Shown one piece after another: positions 8,631 through 38,241 of a stretch of 64,000 nt of DNA. Below the pieces are notes generated by a model. The model had not been told where the DNA came from, searched no databases, and was given only the letters and a program-made list of their open reading frames with translations. How positions within the stretch are numbered: position 1 is the first letter of the stretch; each line of letters begins with the position of its first letter. Source of the stretch: Escherichia phage vB_EcoM_R5505. Made by a program: the position numbers and the translations under genes. Where the stretch lies: sequence record MK373786.1; one strand, given 5' to 3'.

Positions 8631-9101
8631 TTAATCATGTGTCCACACCCCATCGGTATTTGACCAAAGTCGCTGATTATCTGATCCTCGCCACAGCTTT
8701 TTGGTCGGAAGATTTTTCTCATACTTCCCATCAATAATAACATCAACATATTTAAGCATTTCTAGTTGTTTAATATCTTCAAACTTATATCCTGTCCACA
8801 ACCAAATGCTTTTATTGGGATAAAGATTTTTAATAGTTTGAACCACAGAGTGAATCACGTCTCTGTTATCAGGATAAAGAGGGTCACCTCCGGTTATAGT
8901 TAATCCTTCTATATAATCATTATTCAAACATTCAATCAATTGTTCTAGTGTTTCACCAGTGAATGGAATACCATTTCTAGCATTCCATGTTGATTTATTA
9001 TAACACCCTTCGCATTTATGCAAACAACCTGTAACGAAAAGAACGGCCCTGCATCCAGGGCCATTCACAAAATCGCAAGGATAAAATCTATCATAATTCA
9101 T
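8631..9101 (-). CDS. nrdG: Anaerobic ribonucleotide reductase activating protein (radical SAM), 156 aa
   Basis: CxxxCxxC cluster motif (CLHKCEGCYN); 156 aa; immediately downstream of nrdD. Confidence 0.9.
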   Translation of the reverse strand: MNYDRFYPCDFVNGPGCRAVLFVTGCLHKCEGCYNKSTWNARNGIPFTGETLEQLIECLNNDYIEGLTITGGDPLYPDNRDVIHSVVQTIKNLYPNKSIWLWTGYKFEDIKQLEMLKYVDVIIDGKYEKNLPTKKLWRGSDNQRLWSNTDGVWTHD

Positions 9102-10915
9102 TGGTGTTTAACCCTATGCATGATTTCTTTATTTTTACCGAGATTAAATCCGCGTTCGTTCGGATTTCCCAAATAACCACATGTTCTTCTTATTGTGTTC
9201 ATCTTTTTAGGATCAGTTTCTCCACAAATAGAACAAACAAATCCGTTTTCAGTAGGAGTCATTTCATGGGTACTTCCACATGTAAAACATTTATCTACTG
9301 GCATATTAACACCAAAATAATCTAAATGTTGTGCAGCATAATCCCATACGGCCTCAAGGCCTTTCAAGTTATTTTTCATATCAGGAAGTTCAACATAAGA
9401 AATGTGACCACCTGTCGCAATGAAATGATATGGCGCTTCACGAGAAATCTTTTCAAACGGAGTAATATTTTCTTCTACTGAAACGTGGAAACTGTTAGTG
9501 TACCAGCCTTTATCGGTAACATCTTTTACACTTCCATATTTTTCTGTATCAAGTTTACAGAAGCGATAACAAAGGTTTTCAGCAGGAGTAGAATACAAAC
9601 TAAAAGCAAACCCAGTTCTTTCAGTCCACTGTTTAAGACGAGCATTCATTTTAGTTAAAATTTCTTGTCCAATATCACGACCGACAAGAATATTCAATTC
9701 GTGAATACCAATGTATCCTAAGGACACTGAACTTCTACCGTTTTTAAATAACTCAATTATATCATCATCAGGTTTAAGACGAACCCCGAATGCACCTTCT
9801 TGGTAAAGAATAGGAGCAACAGTCGCTTTAACTCCTTTTAAGGAACTAATTCTACACATCAATGCTTCAAAACATAAATCCATTCGTTCATTGAACAATT
9901 CAACAAATTTCTGTTCATTGAATTGTGTTCCAATATAAGAATCTAACGCGATACGAGGAAGATTCAGTGTTACAACACCGAGATTATTACGTCCATCAAG
10001 AATTTCATTACCAGTCGAATCTTTCCATACGCTCAAGAAACTACGGCAACCCATTGGAGAAACAGGAATAGATGAGCCAGTGATAGCTTTATTATTCTTA
10101 GCTGAAATAATATCAGGATACATTCTTTTGCTTGCGCACTCTAGAGCAAGCTGTTTAATATCATAGTTCGGATCGTCTTTATAAAGATTAACACCTTCTT
10201 CAACAAACATAACAAGCTTAGGGAAAATAGGAGTTATCCCATCACGACCAAGACCTTTAATACGATTTTTCAGAATTGCTTTCTGAATCATTCGTTCAGT
10301 CCAGTCAGTTCCTGTACCAAATGTAATTGTTACAAAAGGTGTTTGTCCGTTTGAACTAAAGAGAGTATTTACTTCATATTCATAAGCTTGGAATGCATCG
10401 TATACGTCTTTTTCTGTTTTAGACTGGGCATAATTCAACGCATCAGCGATTTGCCATTTTTCTGCATCCTCAATATGTTTTGCATAGGTGCGTTTAACAT
10501 AAGGAGAAAGTACTTTATCTACATTAGCAAAAGTCGTTCCGCCGTATTGATGGGAAGCAACCTGTGCAGTAATTTGTGCCATAATTGCAGTAGCAACACC
10601 GATTGATTTAGGAGTTTCAATCTGTGCATTACCAAGCTTAAATCCATTCTCAAGCATTCCTTTTAAATCTACTAAACAACAATTAGTAAATGGAAGAGCA
10701 GGGGAATAATCAATATCGTGAAAATGGATAATTCCGCTTTCATGCGCTTTCATAATAAAAGACGGGACCATATTTTTGGCAATGTGTTTAGACACAATAC
10801 CAGCCATAAGGTCCCGTTGAGTTGGAAAAACACGAGAATCTTTATTAGCATTCTCGTTTAAAAGGTCTTTATTAGTTTTATGAATCAATCCTTCAATTTC
10901 TTTTTCAATTGTCAT
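9098..10915 (-). CDS. nrdD: Anaerobic ribonucleoside-triphosphate reductase, 605 aa, uninterrupted
   Basis: 605-aa ORF with C-terminal Cys cluster (CFTCGSTHEM...CSICG); continuous reading frame, no intron. Confidence 0.95.
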   Translation of the reverse strand: MTIEKEIEGLIHKTNKDLLNENANKDSRVFPTQRDLMAGIVSKHIAKNMVPSFIMKAHESGIIHFHDIDYSPALPFTNCCLVDLKGMLENGFKLGNAQIETPKSIGVATAIMAQITAQVASHQYGGTTFANVDKVLSPYVKRTYAKHIEDAEKWQIADALNYAQSKTEKDVYDAFQAYEYEVNTLFSSNGQTPFVTITFGTGTDWTERMIQKAILKNRIKGLGRDGITPIFPKLVMFVEEGVNLYKDDPNYDIKQLALECASKRMYPDIISAKNNKAITGSSIPVSPMGCRSFLSVWKDSTGNEILDGRNNLGVVTLNLPRIALDSYIGTQFNEQKFVELFNERMDLCFEALMCRISSLKGVKATVAPILYQEGAFGVRLKPDDDIIELFKNGRSSVSLGYIGIHELNILVGRDIGQEILTKMNARLKQWTERTGFAFSLYSTPAENLCYRFCKLDTEKYGSVKDVTDKGWYTNSFHVSVEENITPFEKISREAPYHFIATGGHISYVELPDMKNNLKGLEAVWDYAAQHLDYFGVNMPVDKCFTCGSTHEMTPTENGFVCSICGETDPKKMNTIRRTCGYLGNPNERGFNLGKNKEIMHRVKHQ

Positions 10916-28779: not shown

Positions 28780-29039
28780 ATACTGGCTTCTTTGAGTTTC
28801 GTTTTAGCAATAGTTAACTGATCGAGGCTTTCGGCGTAATTCTTCGCGAGTTCATCATCTTCACAGCTATCAAATGCTTCCCAAAATTCATCGTATAAAG
28901 CATCAAAGATAAGTCCTAAACGAACTTCAGCGTCTTTAATAGCATTTACTTTACCGATTTTTTCGTCGGTATGTGGCTTATAACCTTTAATATCTTCAAT
29001 CATATTTGACTTCCTCACCAGTACATAAATCGTATTCAA
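28737..29039 (-). CDS. Hypothetical protein, 88-100 aa; occupies the vs.4 position (candidate Acb2-like)
   Basis: Track ORF; assignment by position and size only. Confidence 0.4.
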
Positions 29040-29217
29040 CTAAACGAATAGGTTCATGAATGCCATATCCCTGAACAGAAATTTCTGTAGTAGGATAAAT
29101 TCCATCAATATCACCCATATTCCACGCTTCGTTAAATTGCTGTTCGCCTGAATTACTAAACCACTCGGCGAAAGCATTTAGCACATCTTTAGAACCTTCA
29201 ATAATTATCTTTGCCAT
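28996..29217 (-). CDS. Small hypothetical protein, 73 aa
   Basis: Track ORF. Confidence 0.4.
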   Translation of the reverse strand: MAKIIIEGSKDVLNAFAEWFSNSGEQQFNEAWNMGDIDGIYPTTEISVQGYGIHEPIRLVEYDLCTGEEVKYD

Positions 29218-29579
29218 TATAAGCTCTCAGTAAAGGTACGAGCAATAACGTCGCGCTGCTGTTCCGGAGTCAGAGAGTTAAAGCGAACTGCATAACCGGA
29301 TACACGGATGGTCAGCTGCGGATATTTTTCCGGATGCTTAACTGCATCTTCCAGAGTTTCACGACGCAGAACGTTAACGTTCAGGTGTTGACCACCTTCA
29401 ATTTTAACTGTAGGCTGTGGCTCAATTTCAATTTCACGAGCATGCAAACCGTAGAAAATTTCTGGGTCTACAAAAGAGTCCTCTTTAAAGGTTTTAGAGA
29501 CAATAATTCGTGCTTGAATACCATCTTCAAAATAAATAGTACCTTTATGCGTGCCTTCAAGAATTTGATATGCTTTCAT
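29217..29579 (-). CDS. Autonomous glycyl-radical cofactor (GrcA/YfiD-like), 120 aa
   Basis: C-terminal glycyl-radical motif [27 protein letters not shown]; C-terminal half matches my recall of E. coli YfiD residue for residue; local GC content visibly higher than flanking DNA. Confidence 0.9.
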
Positions 29580-29586
29580 ATAAACC

Positions 29587-29967
29587 TCAATTAGAAAATA
29601 AATTTATCCAAGATTGTTCTTTAATTAAAAATGGCTCAGAATCATATGCCATTAAACTTTGGGTGATTAGTCCTTTAAAAGGTCCATCAATAAATTCCAT
29701 GGTAAAATATGGAATTTTATTCATTAACTGTGCGTTAGGAGCAGTGCACAAAACTCTGCATCCTTTGAATACACCTTTTTGTAATTTGTATTGCTTGGGA
29801 TAAAATTCGCTTAAAATGTTGTTATTTGCCAAAATTTCAAAATGATTTACCAATTTATTTTTAATAGTTTTTGGCGAAAAATAGAGATATTCGAAAAGCT
29901 GTGTGTCTGTCATTATTGCATTCCGATTACGAAAAACTGTGGACGAGTAATACCACCAATGCAACAT
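29587..29967 (-). CDS. Hypothetical protein, 126 aa
   Basis: Track ORF. Confidence 0.45.
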
Positions 29968-36765: not shown

Positions 36766-36792
36766 AAAAAGCCCCAACCTTTCGGTCGGGGC
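36766..36792 (-). terminator. Intrinsic terminator at the distal end of the tRNA/stable-RNA transcription unit
   Basis: Stem-loop GCCCCGACC-GAAA-GGTTGGGGC followed by TTTTT on the minus strand. Confidence 0.6.
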
Positions 36793-36799
36793 TAAGCCT

Positions 36800-37100
36800 T
36801 GCGGCAACCTTGTCGGGGTTCCACCTGCTAAGGCAAGTGTTTGTACGAAACGCCGGGATTCGAACCCGGTTATTAAGCAGTTGACGCTACTCAATATTTT
36901 TAAAAGGCCATATCTCGACCATATCCGAACGTTCCGTCAAAAACGCTACTCGGCTTACGGCAAAGATATTTCCTCGAATCGATAATTCGGTGCGCCGTTT
37001 CTGCTGTGATATAAGAGGGCATTAACAAAACATAAAGATTTATTAATGCCAGTCCTTAAACAGGGAACATCAGTCCGACGACTTACCGGTAGCGACCCGG
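36800..37100 (-). ncRNA. Structured non-coding region downstream of the tRNA cluster (candidate small stable RNAs, tRNA-like T-arm)
   Basis: No plausible ORF; tRNA-like T-arm CCGGG-ATTCGAA-CCCGG at 36853-36869 with complementary acceptor-like ends (36846-36852 and 36930-36936); 8-bp inverted repeat GGCATTAA/TTAATGCC around 37019-37050; T4 encodes two small stable RNAs near its tRNA genes. Confidence 0.35.
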
Positions 37101-37104
37101 TTTC

Positions 37105-37455
37105 TTAATATTCTTTTAAAGCATCAATTTGTTCACGGCGTAAACGCCATAAATCAATTGCTTCATAAGCAGATTCAGCATTTCGAATTAGCCGACATTT
37201 ATGTAAAGACTTATGATTTTGATATTGTGTAGATAACGGAATTTTATCTAAAAGGTCTTTACGTTCAAAATATTCGTAACCATCTAAACCAAATGAACGA
37301 TTTTTGAGAAATTGCCAATGACCATATTCGTTTTCGACATAAACATAATCTGCATGCTGATAAAGCAAATTAATTACACGTTCAGAAATAACAGTATCAT
37401 TATGATTAAAATAGAATGTTAAATCATGAACTACTAAATAAACATTACATTTCAT
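37105..37455 (-). CDS. Hypothetical protein, 116 aa
   Basis: Track ORF between tRNA-Arg and the structured RNA region. Confidence 0.45.
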   Translation of the reverse strand: MKCNVYLVVHDLTFYFNHNDTVISERVINLLYQHADYVYVENEYGHWQFLKNRSFGLDGYEYFERKDLLDKIPLSTQYQNHKSLHKCRLIRNAESAYEAIDLWRLRREQIDALKEY

Positions 37456-37473
37456 ATTTTCCTCACTTATAAT

Positions 37474-37549
37474 TGGTCGAGGCAGTAGGGATCGAACCTA
37501 CGACCTAGGACTTAGAAGGTCCTTGCTCTTCCTTCTGAGCTATGCCCCG
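37474..37549 (-). tRNA. tRNA-Arg (anticodon TCT), CCA encoded
   Basis: Hand-folded cloverleaf: acceptor CGGGGCA/TGCCTCG, T-arm GTAGG-TTCGATC-CCTAC, anticodon loop CTTCTAA. Confidence 0.85.
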
Positions 37550-37553
37550 TAAT

Positions 37554-37629
37554 TGGGGTGACCGATGGGAGTCGAACCCATGACTACGAGAATCACAATC
37601 TCGAGTTCTACCAACTGAACTACGGCCAC
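37554..37629 (-). tRNA. tRNA-His (anticodon GTG), CCA encoded
   Basis: Hand-folded: acceptor GTGGCCG/CGGTCAC, D-arm GTTC-AGTTGGTA-GAAC, anticodon loop TTGTGAT, T-arm ATGGG-TTCGACT-CCCAT, discriminator C. Confidence 0.75.
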
Positions 37630-37745
37630 ATTAATACCTACTCCAACAATCAAGATGTCTTCACACGAAATTAAGAGAAGAGTGATCAGTTCAACCCCTA
37701 TAATCGCGTCAAGTAGATATTAATGTGACAGTTGTCACAAATTTG

Positions 37746-37817
37746 GCGGACGTGATAGGATTCGAACCTATAACCAATCGCTTAACAGGCGATCGCTCTG
37801 CCATTGAGCTACACATC
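37746..37817 (-). tRNA. tRNA-Asn (anticodon GTT), CCA not encoded
   Basis: Hand-folded: acceptor GGATGTG/CACGTCC, anticodon stem-loop ATCGC-CTGTTAA-GCGAT, T-arm ATAGG-TTCGAAT-CCTAT. Confidence 0.75.
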
Positions 37818-37821
37818 CAAA

Positions 37822-37908
37822 TTGGTGGGGAGTGGTGGAGTCGAACCACCCGAGTCGCAATGACAATGAATTTACAGTCCACACCGCTACCTCTACGGGA
37901 TAACTCCC
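37822..37908 (-). tRNA. tRNA-Tyr (anticodon GTA), long variable arm, CCA encoded
   Basis: Hand-folded: acceptor GGGGAGT/ACTCCCC, anticodon loop CTGTAAA, long variable arm, T-arm GGTGG-TTCGACT-CCACC. Confidence 0.7.
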
Positions 37909-37917
37909 CAAATTAAT

Positions 37918-37992
37918 TTGGTGGCCCTGGGTGGAATTGAACCACCATCTGGCGATTATGAGTCGCTTGCTTGAACCTTCCAGCTACAGGGC
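37918..37992 (-). tRNA. tRNA with anticodon CAT (Ile2/Met type), CCA encoded
   Basis: Hand-folded: acceptor GGCCCTG/CAGGGCC, anticodon loop CTCATAA, T-arm GGTGG-TTCAATT-CCACC; in T4 the CAU tRNA reads AUA as Ile. Confidence 0.8.
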
Positions 37993-37993
37993 C

Positions 37994-38070
37994 TTGGTGC
38001 TGATTGACGGAATCGAACCGCCGACCTTCTCATTACAAGTGAGTTGCTCTACCTACTGAGCTAAATCAGC
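37994..38070 (-). tRNA. tRNA-Thr (anticodon TGT), CCA encoded
   Basis: Hand-folded: acceptor GCTGATT/AATCAGC, D-arm GCTC-AGTAGGTA-GAGC, anticodon loop CTTGTAA. Confidence 0.85.
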
Positions 38071-38075
38071 AAAAC

Positions 38076-38165
38076 TGGCGGAGGCGATAGGATTTGAACC
38101 TATGAGTCGCCGGAGCGACTGCCGGTTTTCAAGACCGGTGCATTAAACCACTCTGCCACGCCTCC
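38076..38165 (-). tRNA. tRNA-Ser (anticodon TGA), long variable arm, CCA encoded
   Basis: Hand-folded: acceptor GGAGGCG/CGCCTCC, anticodon stem-loop ACCGG-TCTTGAA-AACCGG, long variable arm, T-arm ATAGG-TTCAAAT-CCTAT. Confidence 0.9.
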
Positions 38166-38167
38166 AG

Positions 38168-38241
38168 TCTCCATACAAGGATTTGAACCTTGGACCTCCT
38201 GATCCCAAATCAGGCGCTCTACCAAACTGAGCTACACGGAG
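38168..38241 (-). tRNA. tRNA-Pro (anticodon TGG), CCA not encoded
   Basis: Hand-folded: acceptor CTCCGTG/TATGGAG, D-arm GCTC-AGTTTGGTA-GAGC, anticodon loop TTTGGGA. Confidence 0.85.

Follow-up and report, generated by a model that had tools for sequence, protein, structure and literature searches.

It is very probable that the gene vs.6 of this phage encodes a GrcA-type spare part for pyruvate formate-lyase (PFL), and that it is an old phage gene whose glycyl-radical domain was overwritten by host grcA sequence through homologous recombination. The DNA analysed, called here the window, is a stretch of 64,000 nucleotides and corresponds to a genome segment of a Tequatrovirus (T4-type). The protein is 100% identical to T4 Vs.6 (Y06I), its gene has as neighbours the T4 genes vs.7, vs.5, vs.4, vs.3, regB, vs.1, vs, tk, denV, and e, and the vs.6 DNA showed 100% identity to that of Escherichia phage AV122 and 97.8% to that of T4. 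vs.6 is therefore an already known T4 gene, with a function reported since 2001, and there is no functional novelty here. What looks undescribed, and is a modestly novel evolutionary observation, is the host-specific, domain-sized mosaic present in phages of two host genera. No description of the nucleotide-level mosaic or of its Klebsiella counterpart was found in the papers searched; Nolan et al. 2006 (PMC1524935) noted only the Gly_radical match and suggested a role in nucleotide metabolism. The features of the window are collected in Table 1.

Table 1: Positions in the window of vs.6, its parts, and the anaerobic ribonucleotide reductase genes.
Feature	Position	Strand	Description
vs.6 (Y06I) CDS	29217..29579	-	120 aa + stop; phage-encoded GrcA/YfiD-type autonomous glycyl-radical cofactor
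Phage-type 5' half, codons 1-59	29402..29579	-	AT-rich; diverged homologue of the disordered GrcA N-terminal region
Core of putative host-derived tract	29245..29401	-	157 nt identical to E. coli chromosomal grcA
3' tail of vs.6	29217..29244	-	grcA-like, 24/28 nt
Shine-Dalgarno-like GAGG	29585..29588	-	5 nt upstream of the vs.6 ATG; read from the sequence, function putative
nrdD	9098-10915	-	605 aa, single uninterrupted ORF, Pfam NRDD end to end
nrdG	8631-9101	-	Directly after nrdD

The first-pass annotation of this DNA had described a 120-aa ORF with a glycyl-radical signature at the C-terminus. This ORF is present, and Pfam Gly_radical (PF01228) was detected in its product with 66.8 bits, the cut-off being 22.2. 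Among solved structures the NMR structure of E. coli YfiD/GrcA (6OWR) matched best, with E 8.6e-42. The C-terminus of PFL came next, residues 58-120 of Vs.6 aligning with its residues 697-759 (94 bits, E 5e-26). PHROG 1209 covered the full length of the protein. Three traits by which the GrcA/YfiD family is recognised (TIGR04365, IPR011140) were found, namely, a glycyl-radical domain with the RVSGY loop, a small free-standing protein (~14 kDa in the family), and a GrcA-type N-terminal region. The TIGR04365 (spare_glycyl) model aligned with residues 20-120 and scored 153.3 bits, below its equivalog cut-off of 170, because the N-terminus of Vs.6 is diverged; Vs.6 is best treated as belonging to a divergent subfamily of phage proteins, PHROG 1209. 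The label of PHROG 1209 in PHROGs is "unknown function", despite the biochemical characterisation of the protein, and the names given to vs.6 in GenBank vary among pyruvate formate-lyase, acetyltransferase, 2-ketobutyrate formate-lyase, hypothetical protein, and GrcA.

The gene is tightly packed between its neighbours. The GAGG motif overlaps the TGA stop of a vs.7-like upstream ORF (29587..29967), and the vs.6 stop overlaps, in the sequence TAATG, the ATG of the downstream ORF (28996..29217, start at 29217). Scans for promoters and terminators around vs.6 gave counts no higher than those in shuffled controls. In a 2026 paper grcA was proposed and used as a PCR marker for Straboviridae (PMC12845203), with a forward primer lying in the phage-specific half of the gene; primers placed in the 3' half of vs.6 would match the E. 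coli chromosome.

Residues 60-120 of Vs.6 were identical to residues 67-127 of E. coli GrcA at 61/61 positions, as the first-pass annotation had stated from roughly residue 62 onwards. At the DNA level, nt 179-363 of the gene (window 29217-29401) shared 181/185 nt with E. coli grcA, including a perfect run of 157 nt seen by blastn against grcA of E. coli SK1144. The 4 mismatches were all synonymous, mostly AT-ward, and confined to the last 28 nt. The core of the tract covers the structured glycyl-radical domain: it opens with the codons of EGGQHLNV, includes the RVSGY radical loop, and closes with those of EQQRDVI. The similarity to grcA was bounded by the EGGQH codons and by the stop codon. 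The tract matched grcA in all 5,426 complete E. coli genomes, and it was the only chromosomal match when the whole 64-kb window was compared by megablast with all E. coli genomes. In a protein-guided alignment the maximum chi-square breakpoint fell between window positions 29401 and 29402 (gene nt 178 and 179), with 44.4% identity to grcA on its 5' side and 97.8% on its 3' side (Fisher 8e-34). The tract of T4 strain 147 was even closer to E. coli grcA (183/185 nt), and the 3' tail of vs.6 varied as a patchwork among T-even phages.

The composition of the gene changed along with its identity. The tract had 47.6% GC, the 5' half of vs.6 had 34.8%, and the whole window had 35.1%; among 185-nt windows ranked by GC the tract was in the top 0.9%, only the putative tRNA cluster being richer. 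Within vs.6, GC3 rose from 22% in the 5' half to 41% in the tract. The GC-richer DNA of the C-terminal half and the recent recombination with the host gene, both proposed in the first-pass annotation, were thus supported by the nucleotide alignment, the GC3 step, and the breakpoint; the similarity to grcA was not distant, and GC was not uniform across the gene. The pattern goes far beyond what chance would produce. Near-identity at synonymous sites, a sharp breakpoint, a compositional step, and specificity for the host species, by which a host mosaic is recognised, were all found.

Some features of the DNA itself are worth recording here. A perfect palindrome of 14 nt, GAACGTTAACGTTC, is located at window 29369-29382, just inside the 5' edge of the putative host-derived tract, and a 5-bp hairpin (AGGTG..CACCT) at 29383-29397 adjoins it; E. 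coli grcA has both. The GC-richest block of the window (36771-38171, 50-54% GC) was taken as a putative T4-type tRNA cluster. At ~37820-37912 there was an 88% megablast match, annotated as tRNA-Tyr, on 219 E. coli plasmid records, and this tRNA-Tyr-like stretch was the only E. coli match in the window besides the grcA tract.

The N-terminal half had been described in the first-pass annotation as unrelated to GrcA, and this was wrong. The N-halves of Vs.6 and GrcA shared 33% identity over 39 residues by BLASTP (E 4e-5), and when profiles built from 10 phage and 10 bacterial GrcA N-halves were compared with hhalign, all 60 columns were aligned with a probability of 97%, E 8.5e-11, and ~28% identity. 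Considering that this half is homologous to GrcA, vs.6 is a full-length, old, and diverged homologue of grcA. The gene of the window then appears to be a pre-existing phage homologue with an overwritten 3' half and not a host fragment fused to foreign sequence.

A homologous N-terminal half is also what would be left by a single ancient capture of the whole grcA followed by unequal divergence, in which the disordered N-half drifted and the radical domain was held by constraint. That half is disordered in YfiD, hence weakly constrained, and the protein sequence of the C-terminal half hardly changes across Enterobacterales and Pasteurellaceae. However, constraint on the protein cannot keep synonymous sites, and the dS of the tract against E. 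coli was 0.00 for T4 and 0.02 for the window; third codon positions were identical to grcA at 59/62 sites in the tract and at only 18/59 in the 5' half, and the GC3 step described above also speaks against drift of this kind. Further evidence against it came from the other phage lineages considered below.

The donor was sought at the DNA level in 80 bacterial species. The tract was closest to E. coli (97.8%), followed by a cryptic Escherichia sp. (96.8%), C. amalonaticus (90.3%), and Salmonella (83.2%), and its identity to 76 other species was 77-88%. These values point to E. coli itself as the donor and date the conversion to a time when E. coli had already separated from Salmonella and Citrobacter. 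As regards the direction, GC3 is uniform in E. coli grcA (42.4% and 42.6% in its two halves) and the phage gene is stepped; the transfer therefore went from host to phage. Phage-to-host transfer was rejected on the same grounds.

Homologues of vs.6 were found by tblastn in 1,588 phage records, from T4-like, T5-like, jumbo, and Aeromonas phages. In eight other lineages, i.e., Karamvirus, Slopekvirus, Pseudotevenvirus, Krischvirus, T5-like, jumbo, Aeromonas, and a Pasteurellaceae-like group, comparison of the 3' half with more than 80 host species gave a closest match of only 72-86% identity, and these lineages represent the unconverted state. Most of the lineages bearing vs.6 are thus without a recent host tract, and the tract is therefore not a general property of the gene. 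The E. coli tract of 175 nt was matched by 642 phage records at 95% identity or more, by 2 at 90-95%, and by 107 at 80-90%. For the K. pneumoniae tract the corresponding counts were 106 at 95-99%, 28 at 90-95%, and 526 at 80-90%, and the top rows sampled were all Klebsiella phages. The counts for the two tracts were reciprocal and bimodal, and the tracts of Salmonella enterica and Enterobacter asburiae, used as negative controls, had 0 phage records at 90% or more.

The Klebsiella phages of the genus Jiaodavirus had a 5' half 72% identical to that of T4. Their tracts matched K. pneumoniae grcA at 154/156 nt (phage 15882-1) and 155/156 nt (IMG/VR contig L132) and were ~87% identical to E. coli; the residues were also of Klebsiella type, with LLDAVEH replacing LEDAVKH, and the last ~25 nt formed a common phage-specific block. 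The grcA reference for Klebsiella was CP125156.1 (L094), a PLSDB "plasmid" record that is actually a 5.37-Mb K. pneumoniae sequence. Between Jiaodaviruses KMI12 and PKO111 dS was 0.45 in the tract, higher than the 0.28 of the 5' half, which suggests different donors. The tract of PKO111, a K. oxytoca phage, had 13 differences from K. pneumoniae, and its donor was not found in an exact 29-mer scan of JGI metagenome contigs, which yielded six bacterial grcA loci 86-89% identical. The radical domain appears to have been overwritten independently in the E. coli phages and in the Klebsiella Jiaodavirus, so at least twice.

Other records deserve mention. In L132 (IMGVR_UViG_2974754850_000001) the match to vs.6 is 359 nt long and the ORF with EGGQH has only 80 aa, suggesting that its 5' half contains a frameshift or a sequencing error. 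Among the IMG/VR contigs, L127-L136 (32-154 kb) form a phage group with longer GrcA-like proteins, in ORFs of 131-179 aa, whose N-half is closer to bacterial GrcA (ARCLVAK, EYREVEI) and whose C-half has Pasteurellaceae-like residues (DAIQNPDKYPQ); the tract of this group was 79-86% identical to grcA of Haemophilus or other host species, and the group may represent an older host-derived state. Some PLSDB "plasmid" records turned out to be whole chromosomes or chromosome pieces, and the grcA of K. aerogenes NCTC10006 (L095, LR134122.1) carries a 1-nt frameshift, probably an assembly error.

The distribution bears on the ancient capture with unequal divergence set out above. The eight lineages are under the same protein constraint and nevertheless reach only the identities given above in DNA, and the Klebsiella phages match Klebsiella and not E. 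coli, so that we regard this history as extremely unlikely. It bears as well on the idea that the identity was produced by convergent codon usage under translational selection or by an artefact such as contamination or chimeric assembly. It is true that grcA is highly expressed with biased codons and that host DNA is present in phage preparations, but the identity at synonymous sites is specific to the host species, and E. coli phages of other lineages (Krischvirus, T5-like) were only 73-76% identical. Moreover, the tract occurs in 642 phage genomes that were sequenced independently, T4, T2, and the RB phages among them, and lies in frame within an intact phage gene; we give convergence or artefact practically no weight.

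Overwriting by host grcA being the preferred reading, the age of the tract within the E. coli phages can be approached by comparing Tequatrovirus with Mosigvirus. Between T4 and Mosigvirus ST0 the tract had a dS of 0.05, compared with 0.50 for the 5' half (Fisher p 2e-4), and a second Mosigvirus (L110) showed 20 differences from the window over the 178 nt of the 5' half and none over the 157 nt of the tract. In general, the 5' halves of the two genera differed at 18-21/178 nt, and the flanking genes were 50-93% identical. From these comparisons the tract is younger than the two genera.

It is possible, though we put it at somewhat below an even chance, that homology-limited gene conversion from the chromosome keeps resetting the radical-domain half of vs.6 to the allele of the current host species. 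A different history, which we consider rather unlikely, is that one conversion took place per host genus and the tract then spread by phage-phage recombination, without ongoing conversion from the chromosome. T-even phages recombine freely, every E. coli-type tract comes from the same major E. coli allele, and Tequatroviruses from Yersinia or Proteus retain the E. coli tract, all of which agrees with such a spread. The two variants in the tract of ST0 agree with it too: they were present in 0/5,426 E. coli genomes (the best genome had 98.9%) and therefore arose on the phage side. Against the spread, given the divergence of the flanks noted above, exchange between phages would need to be limited to the same 160-180 nt; perfect identity ran to different 3' positions in different phages (nt 157, 166, 169, 172, or beyond 175), and several phages in both genera had 0 differences from the E. 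coli tract. For the E. coli phages, a single conversion with phage-to-phage spread fits as well as repeated conversion. The possibility that the variants of ST0 were natural E. coli alleles, which would have indicated separate donors, was rejected from the same genome count.

The host named in the record did not always agree with the tract. The tract of Pseudomonas phage vB_PSGBLB0006 (H156) was 99% identical to E. coli grcA, and in Proteus phage Isf-Pm2 and several Yersinia phages (H89, H77, H93) the protein was 98-100% identical to that of the window. The type of tract therefore follows the phage genus or its real main host and not the labelled host. If the repeated resetting is true, it would amount to natural and ongoing recombination from chromosome to lytic phage in T4 itself, and the tract would record at the molecular level which hosts had recently been used; phage genes with ~80% identity to a host gene may undergo the same homogenisation if conversion is frequent.

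The mechanism that we propose for the overwriting starts from vs.6 as an old, full-length, diverged GrcA homologue carried by T4-like, T5-like, and jumbo phages. In Tequatrovirus and Mosigvirus, ~155-178 nt encoding the structured radical domain would have been overwritten by E. coli grcA sequence, and in Jiaodavirus the equivalent segment would have been overwritten independently by Klebsiella grcA sequence. The process would be homologous recombination or gene conversion with the host chromosome as template, in which the T4 recombination system acted through double-strand-break repair or join-copy synthesis. The cross-overs may have occurred in the two most conserved nucleotide blocks, which lie at the ends of the tract, the 3' block being the one that encodes EQQRDVI. 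Beyond these limits, in the 5' half and past the stop, there is no such homology to the host into which the tract could extend, and the last 10-28 nt, where the vs.6 stop overlaps the next start, would remain phage-like. In the insertion/substitution vector system of Selick et al. 1988, T4 reportedly recombines efficiently with short homologies on cytosine-containing plasmids. The E. coli and Klebsiella phages would provide two clean, datable cases of homologous exchange from host to lytic phage in the best-studied phage system, and the rate and mechanism of the exchange would be measurable in T4 by simple recoding experiments.

With regard to function, the first-pass annotation had stated that a T4 homologue acting on PFL was reported, and this is correct: it is the same protein, 100% identical. 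According to the work of Wagner et al. 2001 (BBRC 285:456), as it is cited in PMC8683613 and PMC13450708, T4 Y06I and YfiD restore oxygen-cleaved PFL; PFL-AE places the glycyl radical on the small protein, which binds the cleaved enzyme, and catalysis is restored. Residues 1-60 of YfiD are disordered and aid binding and activation, and the structured residues 61-127 duplicate PFL 693-759 (PMC8683613). The tract of vs.6 starts at GrcA codon 66-67 and therefore covers almost the whole structured domain. The radical domain of Vs.6 would then replace the domain that oxygen cleaves from host PFL, and active PFL would keep up the supply of acetyl-CoA, ATP, and formate while microaerobic gut cells are being infected. 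Class III ribonucleotide reductases, the T4 type included, use formate as their reductant (PMC4493059, PMC5704485), and the formate made by PFL might feed the phage's own class III enzyme, NrdD/NrdG.

The first-pass annotation had also placed vs.6 in one region with nrdD and nrdG and proposed it as a spare radical domain for NrdD. The genes are on the same strand, but they lie 18.3 kb away and are not adjacent, and the proposed role was unsupported. We regard it as very unlikely that Vs.6 serves the phage NrdD rather than host PFL. NrdD is itself a glycyl-radical enzyme (Pfam Gly_radical), vs.6 and nrdD belong to the same prereplicative gene block, and the reviews leave open the existence of spare parts for other glycyl-radical enzymes (PMC8683613, PMC13450708). 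Gene order in other phages can be read in the same sense, since homologues of vs.6 are found directly beside nrdG in Aeromonas phages PX29 and phiWae14 (H133, H134) and one gene downstream of nrdD in Yersinia phage fHe-Yen9-04 (L101:1-957). On the other hand, BLASTP of Vs.6 against the NrdD of the window detected no significant similarity (E 2.6), no NrdD chain was present among the 33 PDB matches of Vs.6 at E<=1e-3, and the radical domain of Vs.6 is that of GrcA, of PFL type, as its match to PFL 697-759 indicates. The published biochemistry of the identical protein concerns PFL and PFL-AE. The neighbourhood of vs.6 homologues with nrdD or nrdG hints at a functional link of the PFL spare part with anaerobic ribonucleotide reduction, possibly through formate, and the role of formate may explain why the homologues stand beside these genes in some phages. 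The nrdD of some T-even phages, including the reference T4, carries a group I intron with I-TevII (PMC3653736); the nrdD of the phage analysed here appears to be without it.

By comparison with known systems, vs.6 stands nearest to its T4 counterpart, which it resembles in protein, in DNA, and in position (between vs.7 and vs.5, near regB and denV). There is no functional difference between them, and the allele of the window has two more synonymous differences from grcA than that of T4 strain 147 (181/185 against 183/185). With E. coli GrcA/YfiD, Vs.6 shares the identical C-terminal 61 residues, a homologous N-half, the overall size, and the two-part architecture. In contrast to GrcA, the N-half of Vs.6 is diverged (~28% identity by hhalign), the protein is 7 residues shorter, and its TIGR04365 score stays below the cut-off (153.3 < 170); the gene belongs to the phage, has a putative ribosome-binding site of its own, and lacks the grcA promoter. 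The glycyl-radical domain of PflB (PDB 1H16, 2PFL), which aligns with Vs.6 over the residues given above, is the piece that Vs.6 replaces. Unlike PflB, Vs.6 is free-standing, with 120 aa, and the DNA of its tract matches grcA and not pflB; the identity between pflB and the tract of the Klebsiella phages was ~83%.

A precedent for the mosaic is said to exist in the cyanophage genes psbA and psbD, host-like auxiliary metabolic genes in which intragenic recombination between host and phage was reportedly described by Sullivan and collaborators in 2006. As in vs.6, a metabolic gene of a lytic phage is there a mosaic of phage-type and host-type segments. The case of vs.6 differs in that the host is enterobacterial and the phage belongs to the group of the T4 type species, in that the tract corresponds to one discrete structural domain and can be as much as 100% identical to the current host species, and in that the pattern is reciprocal in a second host genus.
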